From: a virus
Lineage: Duplodnaviria > Caudoviricetes
DNA: 64,000 nucleotides
Virus record (IMG/VR): IMGVR_UViG_3300011008_000034
Location: 96,001 to 160,000 of that record
Strand: one strand, 5' to 3'
In this document: positions 270 to 57,595 of the stretch, in pieces
How the letters are laid out: each line of letters opens with the position of its first letter
Numbering within the stretch: the first letter of the stretch is position 1
The notes under the pieces: model-generated
Told to the model about the DNA's origin: nothing
The model's input: the letters and a program-made list of their open reading frames with translations, nothing else
The model's database searches: none
Position numbers and translations under genes: made by a program

Positions 270-1394
270 TTATACATGTACTACAATAAAAGAATTTGGT
301 AATGCTATACAAAAATTGTTTTGGCTTTTTAATTTGATATGATAAAAAGCTTCTTTTTTATTATATATCATAATATTGGACATAATAATCTTATGATTAT
401 AATGCTGAGATTGTGTAATAAAATCTTGTAAATCAGTAAAATACTGACTTAATTTAGAAAAACTAGGAGCTTTAGAATGCAAATATTTACGTTTTTCTTC
501 ATATGTTGTTTCTGATATTTGATTATTGTCATCTAAAATAGCTTTTCCAATTTTTAACATTTTATTTCGTTTTGCTGATTTTCTATCTTCAGGAGAACGA
601 GTAAGACTTTCATATTCATGTTGAGATAGAAATTGTTCGGCTTCATAAGATAAATTAAAAAATTCATCATAAGATACAAAGTATTTTTTAATTAAATAAT
701 CAGATAAAGGATATCGAAGAAATTGTTTTGCATAATGGGATTCTATTAAATCTTTTGTCAGATTAGTATATTTTTTGATTAAACATGCTCCAGATTTTGC
801 AATTAAATCTCGTTTCTGTTTATTTTGCATATTCATGTCTTTATCTTTATTAAATCGTAATTCTTTGGTTTTATCATGATATGCTTTATGCTTATTTTTA
901 TCTAACCACATTAAATTCGTGGGATTGTTGTCTCTATAATTTTCATTAATATGATGTATTTCAAATCCAGAAAAATCTGTTTTTGGTTCATAATAAAATT
1001 TCACCATATGATGTGTATACATATATGTATTTATCACAAAATCATAATACATCTCACGATCATAATTAAATTCATGATTTTTTGAATATTGAAATGACAT
1101 AGGAATAATGGAAGTATATGATAAAATATCTTCAGCATATAAAGAATAAAATTCTGGAGTAATGAAAATCTGATTCTTATCACATTCTAAAGAATCTCCA
1201 GTATCTAATTTCATCTTACATGCTTCTGTTAAATATTGTTTATTGATAGAAATAATTTCATCTGGTACTATTTCCATATCTGGAGTTATAGAATAACAAA
1301 AACATCTAACATGATTTTTTATCAAATGATTTAATTCTTCTAAAGTAGGCATAGTACCATTTAGTAATTTGATATGAGTACTATAATGAAGCAT
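270..1394 (-). CDS. Free-standing degenerate intein-like (Hint) protein with HNH endonuclease
   Basis: The N-terminus MLHYSTHIKLLNG resembles intein block A and the C-terminus NHKI...FYHIKL...NNF...IVVHV resembles blocks F/G. Central EIHHINENYRDNNPTNL is an HNH motif. Has its own RBS. Confidence 0.7.
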   Translation of the reverse strand: MLHYSTHIKLLNGTMPTLEELNHLIKNHVRCFCYSITPDMEIVPDEIISINKQYLTEACKMKLDTGDSLECDKNQIFITPEFYSLYAEDILSYTSIIPMSFQYSKNHEFNYDREMYYDFVINTYMYTHHMVKFYYEPKTDFSGFEIHHINENYRDNNPTNLMWLDKNKHKAYHDKTKELRFNKDKDMNMQNKQKRDLIAKSGACLIKKYTNLTKDLIESHYAKQFLRYPLSDYLIKKYFVSYDEFFNLSYEAEQFLSQHEYESLTRSPEDRKSAKRNKMLKIGKAILDDNNQISETTYEEKRKYLHSKAPSFSKLSQYFTDLQDFITQSQHYNHKIIMSNIMIYNKKEAFYHIKLKSQNNFCIALPNSFIVVHV

Positions 1395-1678: not shown

Positions 1679-3013
1679 TTGAAAAAGAATAATCATAAGA
1701 AAAAACACATAATTCAACATCCTATAGGTATTTCTTTTATTAGTAAGGATTTAAATAAAGAAAAATATGAGCAGATCAAGATTTTTACAAAAAGAATAGT
1801 AGAATGTAAAAATTATATGTCTGCTTATTATTATTGTATGTATCATTTTAAACGTACTATATCTAAAAATGATTTTTGTAAGGAAATGAAAAATAATAAA
1901 ATCGATCAAGCTTTTGATATTCCTAGCGGAATTTTTCAACAAGCTTGTTATGATGTTTGGTCTAAATATTTCAAGAAAAAACCTCCTAAAAAAATAGTGA
2001 CATTTAAAAAATTATCTTTTATAGGTGTAAATACCACTTCTATTCCTATGTTTATGAAATCTGATAACATTCATACTAATGGTATTATTAATTTTAATAT
2101 TCCTAAACAAGGGATTATAGCTATTCCTTTTAAATATTCTAAAAAATATCATGGGGATTTAACAAAAATTCATTATTCTATGAAAGGTAAAGGAGGATAT
2201 CAATATCAAAAATTATATCGATTAACTATAAATGAAGGTACTGAAACCATAAAAATTTCTATTACCGAAGAAAACAAAGATTATTATGAATTAGAATATG
2301 ATAAGCAAAAAATTTTAGGTGTAGATGTTAATATATCTAGAAATTTATTTGCTTGTAGTGATGGTTATTTTATAGAACACGATAAAAAATTGGTGCAAAA
2401 ATTAATTAATCATGATTTAAGAAATAGACAAACCATAAAGACAAAAAAGAAAAGGGGATTATCAGAAGAACATAGTAAGAAACAGAAAATTATAGATGAA
2501 CGAGATAAAAATAGAGCTAAATGGCATATTATTACTAAATTATTACAGCTTTTTAAATATGCAAAAAGAATGGGATATAACCATTTGGTATTTGAAGATT
2601 TATCTCCATTTTATGGAAAAAAGTATATAAAAAGCAAGTATAATGATGTTAATCAAAATGAATTAATGCATATCTTACATTTTTTTGATATAAAAAATGC
2701 AGCTATAGCATTAGGAAAAAAGTATGGTTTTTTAGTAAGCACAGTACCTGCAGCATATACATCAAAAGGTTGCCCGATTTGTAGTCATATTCATAATGAT
2801 AATAGAAAAACACAATCTCATTTTAAATGTATGTGTTGTGGACATACTTATGATGCAGATACTAATGCTGCTTTAAATATCAAACAAAGAGTTTCCTTAG
2901 AGGTTCTAAGGAATCAAATGGCTACCAAAAGAGAAAAGCAATGTTATGATGCTAAAGATTTAACATTGAAAGAAGTTAAACAAATCATAACAGATTATCA
3001 TTTAACGGCTTAA
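1679..3013 (+). CDS. tnpB: TnpB-family RNA-guided nuclease (divergent N-terminus, no tnpA)
   Basis: RuvC-I GVDVN, RuvC-II VFEDL, Zn finger CPIC...CMCC and RuvC-III DADTNAALNI. Confidence 0.85.
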   Translation: MKKNNHKKKHIIQHPIGISFISKDLNKEKYEQIKIFTKRIVECKNYMSAYYYCMYHFKRTISKNDFCKEMKNNKIDQAFDIPSGIFQQACYDVWSKYFKKKPPKKIVTFKKLSFIGVNTTSIPMFMKSDNIHTNGIINFNIPKQGIIAIPFKYSKKYHGDLTKIHYSMKGKGGYQYQKLYRLTINEGTETIKISITEENKDYYELEYDKQKILGVDVNISRNLFACSDGYFIEHDKKLVQKLINHDLRNRQTIKTKKKRGLSEEHSKKQKIIDERDKNRAKWHIITKLLQLFKYAKRMGYNHLVFEDLSPFYGKKYIKSKYNDVNQNELMHILHFFDIKNAAIALGKKYGFLVSTVPAAYTSKGCPICSHIHNDNRKTQSHFKCMCCGHTYDADTNAALNIKQRVSLEVLRNQMATKREKQCYDAKDLTLKEVKQIITDYHLTA

Positions 3014-3130: not shown

Positions 3131-3535
3131 ATGTTGTCAGAATATCAAAAGCCATTTATCGTAACCGCTACATTAGAAGCAATTTCCGATATGCACTATA
3201 CTTTTATTGATGTTAAACCATTTATAGAAAAAATAGATTCTTATAGAATTGGAAACCTATGTGACCATATTAATTTACAAATCAAAGACGTTTTGCAATA
3301 CATTGATATTAGTGAATTACAAATTGGAATGAATGTGTTTTTATTTTGTAATACTAAAATATATTACTCTAAATATAATGAAAAACGTTTTGGACTAGAA
3401 CTTAGTGATACAATCAAATGTCCAATTTTATTCACAAAAGAACAAGTATTAAATATACCGGAAAATTCATATATGCATTTTACAAATGATGTATTGACTA
3501 AACTAAAAATAAGAATCCAACCACCTAGTTTTTGA
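3131..3535 (+). CDS. Hypothetical protein, paralog of 36499-37224
   Basis: Shares a KP/RP...(L/I)CDH(I/L)N...DV..YI...C...Y.....RxG..L pattern. Confidence 0.6.
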   Translation: MLSEYQKPFIVTATLEAISDMHYTFIDVKPFIEKIDSYRIGNLCDHINLQIKDVLQYIDISELQIGMNVFLFCNTKIYYSKYNEKRFGLELSDTIKCPILFTKEQVLNIPENSYMHFTNDVLTKLKIRIQPPSF

Positions 3536-51364: not shown

Positions 51365-53386
51365 TTATACATTTTTTTCTATTCTTTTTCGTTCAGCATT
51401 AACATCATCTTTGTTTTGAATGTTATTATTATTTCGTTGTATTTCCTTTTTATTTCCTTCACTTGAAATTCCAGTAATTGTTCCTTTGCTATTATTTATG
51501 CATCTATAATTATTATCAAATTCTTGTTCTGTAATTACATCCTTGATTTCACCGTCACGACCCGTTATGGTTTCCGTTTTTGTTCTTTTTATTTCTGGTT
51601 CTTGAGCTTGTGATTGACGACCTTCCGTTGTTTTTGAATCTGTTGTTTCTCCTTTTGAAGGGACTTTATATTCACCTAATACTAAGTTTTTAGGGATAAT
51701 TATTGCCGCATCAATATAATTAGTCAAAACAATATTAATTTGTTCTTCTATTTGCGCAAGAGAATTTCCAAATTTTCCTTCATTTAATGCTATAATAGCA
51801 TATTTTAATTCATCAAATTGTTGTTGTATATTACTTTGTTCTAATACATCTTTAAATGCTTCTATGGTTTCATATGTTTTTAAATCTAGGTCTGATTTCC
51901 ATTTTATTTGTGTTCCAGCTTTATCTGATGTCATTGTTACGTTTGTAGCAGATGATTTTACGCCTGCGCTATTTGCTAAATTATCTGCTATATTTTTTAC
52001 ATATGTTCCGTAATCTCTTCCATCTTGTTTATTTATTTCACCATTATTTATTTCACCATTAATATTTGTAACGCCTTTATATACAAATTTTGTTCTATCA
52101 AAATCATAAATAAAGATTTCAAAATCACCAATTTTTTGTGGCGTTTCTTGAATTTGGCCATTAGGTAAACGTGTTTGTTGGACTTTATAAAATTCTCCCG
52201 TACTTTTTCCAGTTCTACGATTCCATTTTAAATTATATGTTTCTGAATCCCAAGGCTCATTAGCATTATTTGCTTCTTTTAATGCTAATGTTGTCCATTT
52301 ATCTGCTCGTTTTTCTTCATCGGATTTTTCTTGAGCAGCTTTCATTGCTGGTTGTGAAATATCTATTCCATATTCTTTTATAGCAATAGATTTTACAGTG
52401 TCTCCAGCAAGTACAGTGTATTCTTTAAAATTATTAGTATCTCGATATTTTTTTGATTCAGATACAATATCAGCCAATTGCGGACAATACCCAGTATTAA
52501 CATCATAATATGTTTTGTATAATAATAACATCTGATCAATTGCTGAGGGTTCGCCCATCATACGTCCAAATGTCAATGATAATGTCATTGTTGATTCTTT
52601 GTTTGTATTAATATTTCTTCTTATTGCAGATACATAATAAATACTTTGCGCGTCTGTTTTTTGTGCTGCGTAACTTGCTCGTAATCCTTTATACGATGAA
52701 CTAGTTCTTATTCCTCCAATAGTACCATTTAAATCACTACCAGATATTTCTTTTGAATCACTAACTGCTTCGGCTGCTTTTTCTTCAGTTCCGTTATTTG
52801 CTGAAACGTTGTCTTTTGTTTTTTCAGCACTTTGCACTTGTGCTTTATCTCCCATTACTTCTGGAGAACTATCTTTTTTATTACTTTGTTCTTCTGTTTT
52901 TACAGTTAATTTTGGAAGTTCTATATTTACCACATCTTTTCCCATTGATGAAAATGCTGAGACTATTCCTCCATTTACTGCATTTTGAGCATTTTGTAAT
53001 GATTGATAATTATGTTGATTTGACATATTTCCCCATGCAGAAGGAGCACTAGACCCATTTTCTTGAGAAGCTAATGGCTTATGAGGATGTTCATCATATG
53101 CAAAAAATCTTACAGGATTTCCAATTTTTATAGCACTATCATCTATCATACTTAATGTACCTGAATAACGTTCAGCTACAGATTTTGCACACATCATATA
53201 TCCTAATACATGCGCATTTTCTTTATTTCCCATATGAGGAATATTAAAAGTTCGTGGAGACGGACGACATCCAAAACGAATCATAGAATTAATATCAGGA
53301 AATACTCGACGAATTTTTCCCAATGGACCTGCTTGTTCATAAGGAGAATGATCTCCAATAATTTCGACTTCATACATATTGTAAAA
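51365..53386 (-). CDS. Baseplate hub/tail protein, exon 2 (LysM-like)
   Basis: In frame with exon 1 after intron removal (SDEN|FYNMYEV); YTVLAGDTVKSIA..YG LysM-like motif. Confidence 0.8.
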   Translation of the reverse strand, partial: FYNMYEVEIIGDHSPYEQAGPLGKIRRVFPDINSMIRFGCRPSPRTFNIPHMGNKENAHVLGYMMCAKSVAERYSGTLSMIDDSAIKIGNPVRFFAYDEHPHKPLASQENGSSAPSAWGNMSNQHNYQSLQNAQNAVNGGIVSAFSSMGKDVVNIELPKLTVKTEEQSNKKDSSPEVMGDKAQVQSAEKTKDNVSANNGTEEKAAEAVSDSKEISGSDLNGTIGGIRTSSSYKGLRASYAAQKTDAQSIYYVSAIRRNINTNKESTMTLSLTFGRMMGEPSAIDQMLLLYKTYYDVNTGYCPQLADIVSESKKYRDTNNFKEYTVLAGDTVKSIAIKEYGIDISQPAMKAAQEKSDEEKRADKWTTLALKEANNANEPWDSETYNLKWNRRTGKSTGEFYKVQQTRLPNGQIQETPQKIGDFEIFIYDFDRTKFVYKGVTNINGEINNGEINKQDGRDYGTYVKNIADNLANSAGVKSSATNVTMTSDKAGTQIKWKSDLDLKTYETIEAFKDVLEQSNIQQQFDELKYAIIALNEGKFGNSLAQIEEQINIVLTNYIDAAIIIPKNLVLGEYKVPSKGETTDSKTTEGRQSQAQEPEIKRTKTETITGRDGEIKDVITEQEFDNNYRCINNSKGTITGISSEGNKKEIQRNNNNIQNKDDVNAERKRIEKNV

Positions 53387-53514
53387 CTGTTATATTTAAC
53401 TAAAAGTTAAATTTGCTATTTCATCGAACCCCATTTTGTCGAAACTAATTTGGTTTGTATAGTTCTCAATAGCTTAAAGTTGTAACAACAACTCTAAAGT
53501 TAATACTTTTCTTA
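53387..53514 (-). ncRNA. Putative omegaRNA scaffold (5' boundary uncertain)
   Basis: Structured region between the tnpB stop and the intron end: GCUAUU...AAUAGC long stem, GAAC/GUUC inner stem and a terminal AUUUAACU-UUU-AGUUAAAU hairpin. Confidence 0.65.
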
Positions 53515-54669
53515 TTAAGTATTATACTTTTCTAAATTTTTAGCTGCATTTAAATCTCGATCTATTATTAATTTACAAATTGGACATTTATATATTCTAA
53601 CATTTAATTTTAAATTCTTTTTTATATGTCCACAGTTTGAACATGTTTTTGAGCTAGGATAAAATCTATCAGCTAATACAAATTCAATTCCTTCAAATTT
53701 ACATTTGTATTTTATTTGTCGCTTAAATTCATAAAATTTTTGTTCAGATATACTTTTTGCAAGATATTTATTTTTCATCATTCCTCTAACATTTAAATCT
53801 TCCATCACAATTCGTTTTGGATGTTGATTAATTAAAAACCTTGTTATTTGATGAATATAATTATTACGTATGTTAGTTTGTTTTGCACATAATCTTTGAT
53901 ATTTTTGAACTTCTTTAAAATATCTATTTGAACAACGTATTTTATTTTTTTTATTTATACGATATTTTCTAGCCAAATTTCTTTGAACATGTTTTATTTG
54001 TGATTCTAATTTTTTCATTTTTTTAGATCGATTAATATTATTAAATGCGAATTGTTTATTTCCAAAAGAAACAACAGCTAATTTTTTTACTCCAAGGTCA
54101 ATACCCATACTATCGTTATTTGCATTATTATTATTATTTACTTGGTTATCGTATTTTAATGCAAATGATAAAATCCATTTTCCATTTTTTAATGATATTC
54201 TAGGATTAATTGCGTGTAATTTAAATCTTCCCAATGGAAAATTAAATTTTGTTTTACATTTTACTTTTCCGCATTTTTCAATATTTACTAAATTTTTTGT
54301 TCGAAAATAAACATTCGTTTGACATGTAGGAAAAGATAACTTTGTTTTATGCTTACTTTTAAATTTAGGATATCCTTGATTTCCATTGAAAAAATTTTGA
54401 AATGCAAAATGCATATCGGTACATATTATTTGTAATGATGCATTGGCTATTTCTTGAAGCCAATCATGTTGACCATCATATTTTAAATTTTTTGTTATTT
54501 CCATCATGTCAAATCTTGATATATGTTTATTGTTTAATTTATATTCATTATTTTGACATTCAAGTAAATAATTATATATATACCTGCAACATCCTATATG
54601 TTTTAAAAATAATTCTTCTTGTTCTTTTGTTGGATATAACCTTATTTTATAACCTTTTATTATTGTCAC
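53515..54669 (-). CDS. tnpB: TnpB RNA-guided nuclease (intron-encoded)
   Basis: KGYKIRLYPTKEQ N-terminus, GIDLG, VMEDL, CSNC/CPIC and DRDLNAAKNL; GTG start after AGGAGG. Confidence 0.95.
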   Translation of the reverse strand: MTIIKGYKIRLYPTKEQEELFLKHIGCCRYIYNYLLECQNNEYKLNNKHISRFDMMEITKNLKYDGQHDWLQEIANASLQIICTDMHFAFQNFFNGNQGYPKFKSKHKTKLSFPTCQTNVYFRTKNLVNIEKCGKVKCKTKFNFPLGRFKLHAINPRISLKNGKWILSFALKYDNQVNNNNNANNDSMGIDLGVKKLAVVSFGNKQFAFNNINRSKKMKKLESQIKHVQRNLARKYRINKKNKIRCSNRYFKEVQKYQRLCAKQTNIRNNYIHQITRFLINQHPKRIVMEDLNVRGMMKNKYLAKSISEQKFYEFKRQIKYKCKFEGIEFVLADRFYPSSKTCSNCGHIKKNLKLNVRIYKCPICKLIIDRDLNAAKNLEKYNT

Positions 54670-54699
54670 AATTTTCACCTCCTTTATAATTAAATAAAA

Positions 54700-55105
54700 G
54701 AAATGAATAAATTTAACTACCGTTCGTTAGACGTGTTAGCTATTTTATAGCTCTCTTATTTTCATAAGAGCATAGACTATATCATTCTCACCATATCATT
54801 TCATTTTATAAAACGAAATGACTTAGGTTTTGTCCCCCACTTCCCAGTCACTTGACCAGTACGAGCATTTCAGCTACATAGTCGTTGAACCTTCCTCTTT
54901 AATAAAAGGAGGATTGGCTGCGGATTGCCCAATTCTTAATGTTTTTACCATACATGAGTAATTAATTCATCCATAATAATATCACTATTATTATTTGGTA
55001 ATTAAGACTCTAAGGGGTTTCCCGCAATTCGAGGGAATACATATAATACGTTTCCATATTATACGAACTATTTCATATTAGAAAGTCGATATCTAATATG
55101 ATTTA
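54700..55105 (-). ncRNA. Group I ribozyme core
   Basis: P at 55018-55029, Q at 54917-54926, R at 54879-54890, S at 54775-54786 and P9 at 54753-54770. Confidence 0.9.
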
Positions 55106-57595
55106 ATTTTCGTCACTTTCTTGTGTAGTAAAAGAAATAATATATTCTTGTGGAATTTCGGGAATTAATGCATCTGTTAATTCAGATAATGTACAATCAT
55201 ACCATTGACGTTTTGCACGTTCCAATTTAGCTTTTGAAATATTTTTTCCAGTATCTACATATTCATATGTTTCTTTTCCCTTTTTCTCAGCTTCTTCGGC
55301 TAATACTTTTGAAGCTGAGCTTGCATTTTCTACTGCTTTTTCATATGATGTATTAATATTTAATGCTTCGCCATTTAATTTATATAAATCATTTGGGTCA
55401 ACATCTTTAAATTTGTCAGGATTTTGTGCTATAATTTCTTTATATTTATTTCCGTCTCCCAACCATTTTTCAGCAAGACTAACTAATGTATCTCCTTGTT
55501 GTACTCTAATAGTTGTAGTATTATTTGCTAATCTATTTGCTAATCCCGCAGTATTTGCGGACCCCGATGTACCTAATCTTACGTTTTCATCTTTTGCGTT
55601 TATTCCTTGTCTTCGTGTTTGTTCATAAAAACTTTCTTGAGCAGATGCATTCATAGACTCCTTTTGAGCTTGACTCATATGAACAATTTTCTGTTTATCT
55701 GGGTCTCGAACATATAATCCATCACTACCTTTAACTTGACCTTTTTTGGGGTCTGGTACTGAATCTTTATTTGTTCCAGGTATTTTCATCATGCCATTTT
55801 TTAGCATTTCTTCATCTTTACCAATTAAATCATTTTGGATTGGAAGTTCTTCATCATGTCTAGCCCAATATCCATTAATCATGTTTTTTGTATTAATCTC
55901 TTCTGAATCCAATAATCCATCTTTTAATTGTTCATATCCCATATTATTTTTTACAAGACGATTTGCTCCAAGTGCATAATTAGGCGCTTTTAATACAATA
56001 TTTCCTTCTTCATCTGCAAAAAATTCTAATAATAAATCTTGAGCAGCGCGTTTACAAACAGATAATCTTGTTTCAGCTGAAGCGGACATAAGTTGGTCAG
56101 ATGCTGCTTGTTTGATATTAAAAGTAAAAGGTGGAAATTCAATTGGTTCTATTCTTTCTCTTAAATACCATGTTGGAATACCAGCATCTAAACATAATTG
56201 CGTTACTATTTCTACTAATCTTAATCCTGCAAAAATATTTTGCATTGTCATGCTTTTCCATGCAGCATGTAATGCACGTTCTTCTTCTTTATTAGCACTG
56301 GAAATATTTTTTTCCTTCATAATTGCTAATACTTCAAATGGATTAAAAATTTCTACAGTACCAAAATTTTTATTATCAATATTTCCCCATCTTAAGTCTA
56401 ATCCTGTATTTCCCATCGATGCACCGGCAATCATGGTAGGATTTGTAGAAACATAACTCAATTCAAGCATTTTTAATTGGTCTTGTGCTGTTATCATAAT
56501 TTGACATCCAGCATTTGCTCCTGAAGTATGTGTCTTTTTGACCGAATTAATATATCCGAAGAATATTTGATTCATTTTAAAATCATTAGTTTGTTCATCA
56601 CGTTCAAAATTTGATTTACCAAATACCCATACTTCATCCATACTTTCCCAATCACATTTTTCAGCAAACTTCCAACCAGATGTAGGACCAGGAGTATCAT
56701 CAACGTTTTTTACTTTTTCATATGCCATTGGATATTCAGTTGGAAGGTTTAACGTAACTGTTTTTCCGTTTCCGTAATCAAATGTTGCTTCAGTTGTAGT
56801 AGCTTTTTCATTATCAAATGTAGTTTTTTCAGTAATTTTTGTCGTTTTGTTAATTGCAGTAAAAGTACGATTTCCTACTTTTGTTTTAGATATATCTCCA
56901 TCTTTTGTTTCATTTGTTGCTGCAAATTTAGTTGCTCCACCTTGTTCAGTGTTACTATCAATTCTATTTTGGTCGGTTTTTGCCCCATTTCTTTGACCCA
57001 TAGAATTATTTCCATCGCGATAAATATCTGCATATCCAGGATTTTCCATTCCATTTATCATTCTATTCATAGATGGAATTCCCGTTTCAACGAATGTATC
57101 TTGTTCATAACACATTACTCTTTCTGCACCTTGAATGGTTAATGAACATGTTCCTGACGATAATATTGAAGTTGAAATAGATACATTGACAAAATTATCT
57201 ATTTTATAAGTGCGCATATAATTTCCTTTACTTGCTTTGTCTTTATCTATTTCACCAACAGACATTCTTTGATTTGCTGCATTAGCTGCATAAAATAATT
57301 TTTTTCTAATAAATACAACGTAATCTTGTTTAAAATTAACAATTTTTTTAGAACCAGCTCGTTGTTTATATTGTTCTTGTATGCCCTCTAAATGTTGAGG
57401 TTGGTCATACATTTTATATTTAGAACCTTGTAAAATATCATCACTAGCACTTAATTCAATGGTGCCAGCATCAACATTATAGCCTACTCGTTGATCGCTT
57501 TCAGGAGTAGAATAAGGGTCTTTTCCAGATTTTCCATCATTTTGATTTGTACTTTGTATAGCATTTGTTTCTTTAGTCTTATCGTTTTCTGACAT
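55106..57595 (-). CDS. Baseplate hub/tail protein, exon 1 (LysM)
   Basis: IFFGYI..V, LEFFADEEGNIVLKAP.Y hub-like motifs and VQQGDTL..LA.K.LGDG.KY.EI...N LysM; the apparent stop is the first codon of the intron. Confidence 0.8.

Follow-up and report, generated by a model that had tools for sequence, protein, structure and literature searches.

How a group I intron that carries an RNA-guided nuclease with its guide scaffold, and no transposase, might spread in a structural gene of a large phage is the question raised by the locus analyzed here. The DNA examined (the window) comprises 64,000 nucleotides, bases 96001-160000 of a 177,647-bp IMG/VR virus record with a CheckV completeness of 36%; record size and completeness together suggest a jumbo phage as the source. 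All positions are window coordinates, and the element, the interrupted gene, tnpB and the omegaRNA lie on the minus strand. Elements of this kind, the IStrons, were first described in 2000. The whole IStron occupied 53387..55105 (1719 nt, group I intron plus TnpB plus omegaRNA), as delimited by Rfam and Pfam matches, by the fusion of the two exons and by a right end shared with relatives. A group I ribozyme makes up its 5' end, tnpB of the IS607 type lies behind P9, and the right end is a RAGATH-18 omegaRNA that stops on the terminal G of the intron; the host is a conserved gene of about 1500 codons, putatively of the tail/baseplate module, in what is probably a jumbo phage related to Bacillus phage G. 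We consider it fairly probable that this is a TnpB-only IStron engaged in RNA-guided intron homing.

Judged from its sequence, 53387-55105 is a group I intron, with signals far above chance. The Rfam model Intron_gpI (RF00028) matched 55084..54753 over its full length (model positions 1-253) with 78 bits against a gathering threshold of 50 and an E value of 4e-18. This match, the ribozyme core P2-P9, took in the P4/P6 (P, Q) and P7 (R, S) strands and the GAAA hairpin of P9, the same elements that the initial annotation had recognized from the letters. At E 0.01, Rfam matched no second group I intron in the whole record, although the model is prone to overlook compact introns. P1, a 10-bp P1 extension and a P2 GAAA hairpin were folded at 55040..55108, where exon AAU and intron UA pair with an internal guide UAGUU (55070-55066) and the last exon base, U 55106, stands opposite G 55068 as a U-G wobble. 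The first 86 nt had one dominant structure, with the minimum-energy fold equal to the centroid fold and a shuffle z of -3.4. The 3' terminal base of the intron was G at 53387, so that the U before the 5' site and the G at the 3' site called earlier were both borne out. We infer that the RNA is self-splicing and is cut behind U 55106 at the 5' site and behind G 53387 at the 3' site.

The flanking frames also pointed to one gene split by the intron. Exon 1 (55106..57595, 830 codons) ended in ...GACGAAAAT, and the TAA stop that closes its frame (55105-55103) is made of the first three intron bases. Exon 2 (51365..53386, 673 codons plus stop) started with TTTTACAAT... When 53387-55105 was excised, the 830-aa and 673-aa frames joined into a 1503-aa open reading frame (ORF) reading ...ESDEN/FYNMYEV... 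across the junction (slash), the fusion that had been proposed from the letters. Both halves matched, in collinear order, a single gene (gp185) of Bacillus phage G (no other named phage showed similarity to this gene), and were likewise collinear in the profile of one PHROG family, phrog_14367; in addition, 13 database homologs of 1465-1950 aa covered both halves. The fused 1503-aa product and 10 uninterrupted homologs of about 1500 aa aligned free of gaps across the junction, which lies in a strongly conserved block (...IPEIPQEYI.SF..T.SD.N/.YNMYEVNI.GDF...), and the closest uninterrupted homolog was on a 504-kb contig. The gene is placed between a tape-measure-like protein and a baseplate-wedge homolog, as is gp185 in phage G. 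Pfam gave no match to its product and PDB sequence searches with both exons were empty; the tail/baseplate label is therefore one of context, taken only from synteny and PHROG neighbors. The virion gene is probably essential. In another phage (locus L114), a frameshifted TnpB (316 + 68 aa, at 167-1327) was observed just upstream of a homolog of the interrupted gene, and the 676-nt gap behind this homolog gave no Rfam match and no intron signal.

The nuclease gene itself appeared intact. The IS607-type tnpB (53515..54669) starts at GTG 54669 or GTG 54678, for a product of 384 or 387 aa, respectively (residue numbers here follow the 387-aa form), was assigned by Pfam and PDB matches, and carries the domains HTH_OrfB_IS605, OrfB_IS605 and Cas12f1-like_TNB. 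Its best solved relative was the TnpB of ISFba1 (IS607; PDB 8iaz, E 3e-61); that of ISDra2 (IS605) reached only 6e-33. As had been noted from the letters, the gene sits in the P9 periphery and has all three RuvC acidic residues. It lies 84 nt past P9, the RuvC residues are D194, E293 and D375, and the four zinc-finger cysteines (CxxC...CxxC) are likewise intact. A second assembly was 100% identical over 9.2 kb, and a 1.3-kb contig from another sample (L113) carried a 97%-identical variant with 20 synonymous and 11 non-synonymous codon changes. The ratio of non-synonymous to synonymous polymorphism (pN/pS) between this variant and the window TnpB was 0.12, indicating that TnpB is under purifying selection. 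Four relatives (L006, L007, L008 and L010) have a near-consensus sigma-70 promoter (TTGACA, 17 nt, TAAAAT) between P9 and tnpB, at about 3440-3490 in each.

Relatives of the element were collected by an alignment-based scan of IMG/VR viral contigs for the 80 best TnpB relatives (L026-L105), a single-protein query for related loci having found none. With their help the RNA part of the element could be delimited. The omegaRNA, or right-end element RNA (reRNA), scaffold at 53387..53514 was defined by Rfam, alignment and fold, and consists of a 5' hairpin, RAGATH-18, a 3' hairpin and a terminal UAACAG. RAGATH-18 was found at 53473..53413 with 55 bits against 44.9. This motif is the core of the IS607 TnpB reRNA and co-occurs only with those TnpBs (PMC11061315). 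Its presence, with ISFba1 as best solved TnpB relative, shows that the cargo is of the IS607 type and not the IS605 type; the initial annotation had spoken of IS605/IS607 cargo, of which the IStron assignment stood and the cargo could be narrowed. Downstream of RAGATH-18 there were 26 nt in the window versus 64 nt in ISFba1. We rejected a truncated omegaRNA as the explanation, as the whole clade has the short form and the same end point: the short scaffold was seen in the 4 closest relatives (about 60% aa identity in TnpB, each on a phage-like contig) and in about 23 more viral elements, and conservation ends at the same base, ...AAC(G/A)G, which in the window is the last G of the intron, 53387.

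In an alignment of 28 scaffold sequences, 96% of the cells were standard pairs and compensatory changes occurred at 24 of the 31 pairs; none of 500 shuffles scored as high, and slid controls were about 40% paired. The loop of the 5' hairpin (UUGUUA, 53483..53488) pairs as a pseudoknot with the last six bases of the element (UAACAG, 53387..53392), which include the 3' splice site G, and this pairing was present in every one of the 28 sequences. Most had UCGUUR/YAACGG, while the window, L027 and L058 had UUGUUR/YAACAG and L051 had UCAUUA/UAAUGG. G-to-A at 53388 is compensated by C-to-U at 53487, and the CAG terminus is therefore no sign of decay. In CboIStron, the pseudoknot is needed for DNA cleavage and dispensable for splicing (10.1101/2023.11.20.567912; PMC13521648), so its retention here argues for selection on TnpB function. 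Since the terminal G belongs to the pseudoknot, splicing and guide formation would compete for the same bases, as in the Clostridium IStrons. Because scaffold conservation stops exactly at 53387, the guide would equal the start of exon 2, in agreement with what had been inferred earlier: the predicted 20-nt guide and target are the first 20 bases of exon 2 (53367..53386, TTTTACAATATGTATGAAGT), placed by homology with the IS607 TnpB reRNA (PMC11061315) and CboIStron (10.1101/2023.11.20.567912). The predicted target sequence occurred once in the window. A search for right-end patterns returned chance coding matches only and was discarded.

The predicted target-adjacent motif (TAM) is AAAAT (55106..55110), the end of exon 1, whose last three bases double as the exon strand of P1. 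The 5' splice sites of the relatives were placed by the P1 wobble next to P2 and by continuity of the reading frame, and position 119 of the TID loop was then compared with the 5' flank, without phylogenetic correction: all 12 relatives with Arg or Lys at this position had GG within the last 5 flank bases (loop consensus FPxRxD; flanks GGAT, GGCT, GGAAT and similar), and six elements without Arg/Lys119 (the window, L044, L010, L038, L051 and L062) had no GG in the last five flank bases. Three of these have Cys119, namely the window (FPTCQT, flank GAAAAT), L044 (FPVCNE, AGAAAT) and L010 (FPICID, CAAGAT). On the TnpB tree the six were scattered, with the window grouping with L006 and L007 (GG flanks) and L010, so the association between loop and flank arose more than once. 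Two nearby residues could be compared with solved TnpBs, in which ISFba1 N121 reads G(-4) and ISDra2 Gln80 reads T(-1) (PMC11061315). Position 121 of the window TnpB, which aligns with ISFba1 N121, is Thr, as at the equivalent ISDra2 T123, and Gln83, the equivalent of ISDra2 Gln80, was kept in 25 of 42 aligned TnpBs. Furthermore, (G/A)AAAAT is conserved at the corresponding site of two uninterrupted homologs, L110 and L111 (GATGAAAAT and GATAAAAAT). These observations support that TnpB reads the flank and that the TAM of the window is AAAAT-like, consistent with the earlier proposal that the end of exon 1 is the TAM. The retained scaffold and pseudoknot, the purifying selection and the covariation of TAM loop and flank together support a working nuclease with its guide.

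From these features we infer a path of splicing, TAM recognition, cleavage and homing. The late transcript of the host gene would have two fates: most copies would self-splice and restore the 1503-aa frame, and some unspliced copies would be bound by TnpB, which would keep the scaffold and the first ~20 bases of exon 2 as guide. The resulting ribonucleoprotein (RNP) would target AAAAT directly abutting TTTTACAAT..., the arrangement that an allele without the intron would have in a co-infecting or recombining relative. Thereafter, repair of the TnpB cut from the intron-bearing genome would copy the element in, giving RNA-guided intron homing or retention. The phage's own copy would be spared because the scaffold end AACAG, in place of the TAM, precedes the target. 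Neither a Resolvase nor a Y1_Tnp domain was found in the 177-kb record, as the initial annotation had reported for the element and the window.

Several observations weigh against homing. The record represents 36% of the phage genome, and tnpA could lie elsewhere. The sigma-70-like promoter of the relatives is deleted in the window (54690-54720), and expression of tnpB therefore probably depends on read-through of the host-gene transcript. The known IS607 TnpBs use G-rich TAMs (TGGG, AGGAG, GAGGG), different from the AAAAT flank of the window, whose role as TAM is a prediction; the internal guide of the intron also constrains the flank, and the flank pattern may be partly due to splicing rather than to TnpB. 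A search of related phages for the uninterrupted allele had been proposed. Uninterrupted homologs exist, the closest being about 49% and 41% identical to exon 1 at the aa level; searches of IMG/VR and JGI metagenome contigs with degenerate codons found no exact empty site (TAM plus target). Of the first six target bases, 4 in L110 and 2 in L111 mismatch the guide, and a characterized IS607 TnpB tolerates such seed mismatches poorly (PMC11061315).

Among other explanations, the one that survives best, though we regard it as unlikely, is a stranded relic that is inherited only vertically, whose TnpB and RNA no longer drive mobility and persist either because they are recent or because binding of TnpB tunes splicing of the host transcript. 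The single copy, the record without a transposase, the missing empty site and the missing internal promoter would all be expected of a relic, as would termini without the GG core of IS607 elements; TnpB is also known to repress IStron splicing (10.1101/2023.11.20.567912). However, the pN/pS of 0.12 and intact catalytic residues, the cleavage-specific pseudoknot (PMC13521648) kept by a double compensatory change, and a TID loop that tracks the flank all speak against it.

It is improbable, in our judgment, that the element is a non-autonomous transposon moved in trans by an IS607 serine transposase from the host or from the unsequenced 64% of the phage, with TnpB only restoring it after excision. 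Some ectopic mobility must be granted, as the relatives were located in many unrelated phage genes; the incomplete record leaves room for such an enzyme, and mobilization in trans has been discussed for these elements (PMC13565253). However, IS607 TnpA requires matching core dinucleotides (10.1101/2023.11.20.567912; PMC13521648), and the flank dinucleotide AT of the window does not match the terminal AG. In addition, the spacing from the P4 strand to tnpB was 270-512 nt in about 35 phage relatives, none of which has room for tnpA, and the in-frame junction of L007 lies behind GGAT and not GG.

A similarly low probability was given to a competition weapon, whereby the RNP would cut the gene of co-infecting relatives mainly for marker exclusion or killing of these phages, and gene conversion would be slight or absent. 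The target does lie in the highly conserved NMYEV stretch of a probably essential virion gene, the TAM-like AAAAT is kept in distant homologs, and phage homing endonucleases that kill competitors are known (PMC13565253, section 3.2); against this, the distant homologs that were checked carry the seed mismatches described above, and the idea overlaps with homing and is inseparable from it by sequence. Finally, the view that the ORFs are by nature two genes, separated by a TnpB insertion sequence and never spliced, can practically be dismissed, for although exon 2 offers an in-frame ATG at 53377, the homologs spanning both halves, the gap-free junction in a conserved block and the full-length ribozyme with its correct P1 wobble and terminal G flanking the insert all contradict it.

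RNA-guided homing by a TnpB-only IStron can also be placed among the systems already described. The window element resembles the group B IStrons BcISt1, CboIStron and CbISt3/4 of the C. botulinum phages c-st and D-1873 (PMC4227781; 10.1101/2023.11.20.567912), in which an IA2-type ribozyme lies 5' and tnpB past P9, the right end consists of the scaffold, whose junction with the guide is also the 3' splice site, and the terminal bases take part in a pseudoknot; this group likewise has members with TnpB alone and members carried by phages. However, the group B elements described are inserted behind GG, with a CGG terminus and, as last base of the 5' exon, a G that pairs with C, whereas the window element stands behind AAAAT, with a U-ending exon, a canonical U-G wobble and a CAG end with compensated pseudoknot. 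It differs further in having neither tnpA nor a remnant of it and only 26 nt of scaffold after RAGATH-18. The tnpA of autonomous IStrons is thus absent here, and TnpB-only elements are a recognized subclass (PMC4227781).

In ISFba1 (PDB 8iaz; PMC11061315), the IS607 TnpB has 387 aa, RAGATH-18 lies downstream of the ORF without overlap, and the guide comes from the sequence past the right end, all as found or predicted for the window. ISFba1 is different in its TAM (AGGAG or GAGGG), which is read by K80, K83, N121 and N122 where the window has A80, Q83, T121 and N122 with an AAAAT flank, in the 64-nt motif past RAGATH-18 (26 nt in the window) and in lacking an intron. CdISt1 and other group A (IS200/IS605) IStrons share with the window a T-ending 5' exon behind an AT-rich pentanucleotide and a ...CAG terminus (PMC4227781). 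However, their cargo is a tyrosine (HUH) TnpA with an IS605-type TnpB, an omegaRNA overlapping the ORF and subterminal palindromes, while the window has an IS607-type TnpB and RNA. Group A targets are TTGAT, ATTAT or TTTAT and the end is TCAG, to which AAAAT and ACAG bear a superficial likeness; the paired pseudoknot change shows that the CAG of the window was derived from CGG.

With the phage homing introns (T4 td/I-TevI, Twort, SPO1), the element would have in common a self-splicing intron in an essential gene, a peripheral nuclease ORF and presumed homing upon co-infection. It would differ from them in recognizing its target by a guide RNA and a short TAM, not by protein-DNA contacts, and in that the guide and the 3' splice site use the same nucleotides, so that splicing and guide production would compete.

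The scan of viral contigs indicated that the window element has many kin: about 40 of the 80 best TnpB relatives carried R and S strands of an intron immediately ahead of tnpB, and the lineage appears abundant and transposase-free in phages. Rfam Intron_gpI detected none of the four relatives tested, even at E 1, and their intron core was recognized by alignment and R/S motifs instead; compact phage IStrons are therefore probably under-annotated. In L007, an IStron splits a textbook nrdG, and the sole frame-compatible canonical junction, ...ATGGAT/TAG...CGG/AGACC, rebuilds a 151-aa NrdG. For L006, phage homologs were of no help in placing the junction: none matched the upstream half, and the comparison with the downstream half was not informative at that point. 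Close relatives have a CGG terminus yet T at -1. On the strength of the L007 junction, 5' exons in the phage lineage end in T, versus G in published group B.

Some other loci were observed along the way. At L007 1-3200, upstream of the nrdG IStron, nrdD was in pieces with HNH_3 ORFs between them and looks like a gene with several HNH-bearing introns. Two copies of the IStron (L026 and L087) were located on one 92.8-kb contig with identical upstream and different downstream flanks, which may reflect a repeat or rearrangement at the element. In the cultured Staphylococcus phages Romulus and S25-3 (L004, L005) and in Fusobacterium phage Fnu1 (L003), an annotated 'transposase' was TnpB with RAGATH-18 behind it (64-65 bits), Rfam found no intron upstream of TnpB in these three, and the S25-3 gene lay inside a tail-lysin and structural region. 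The phage of the window has two further TnpB-like genes (444 and ~455 aa) with a Cas12f1-like_TNB domain, one at window 1679-3013 on the plus strand and one just upstream of the window (G000:C1:95200-95403). Beside the former, Rfam matched neither RAGATH-18 nor a group I intron, and an HNH_3 ORF (270-1394, minus strand) adjoins it.

The novelty of RNA-guided intron homing at this locus had been overstated. IStrons with TnpB alone had already been listed in a survey of 2014, along with two from C. botulinum phages (PMC4227781); how IS607 IStrons work, including the conflict between splicing and guide, has been published (10.1101/2023.11.20.567912; PMC13521648); and a review of 2026 stated that an active TnpB could let IStrons without tnpA spread through intron homing, a proposal 'awaiting experimental validation' (PMC13565253). 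Homing is therefore the standard expectation for tnpA-less IStrons, and the known picture of IStron function is unchanged by our findings. What sets this locus apart is that IS607 cargo is combined with an exon ending in U, a presumptive TAM rich in A and T, a CAG end that is compensated, and a place in a structural gene of a jumbo phage. As homing by TnpB-only IStrons has been proposed and not demonstrated (PMC13565253), the locus is a clean natural test case, in that the element occurs once, in a conserved and probably essential virion gene, has an unambiguous junction, a nuclease under selection and a compensated scaffold, and comes with no transposase that would blur the picture.

The TAM specificity seems to have shifted repeatedly within one clade, with position 119 covarying, and this covariation could help to predict or re-engineer the TAMs of compact IS607 TnpB editors. 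More tentatively, and with somewhat less than an even chance in our estimate, the window element may be one of a large lineage of phage IStrons that lack a transposase and whose IS607-type TnpB has turned into a genuine intron homing endonuclease guided by RNA. Under this proposal all members examined would have a canonical U-ending 5' exon, the TAM loop, internal guide and flank would co-evolve (mostly GGAT/GGCT, ARAT here), and the pseudoknot would be kept even where the core dinucleotide of the recombinase is lost. The guide would be whatever sequence lies past the 3' splice site, so that an ectopic insertion would retarget the nuclease automatically; if true, such retargeting would explain the spread of the lineage over many unrelated phage genes.

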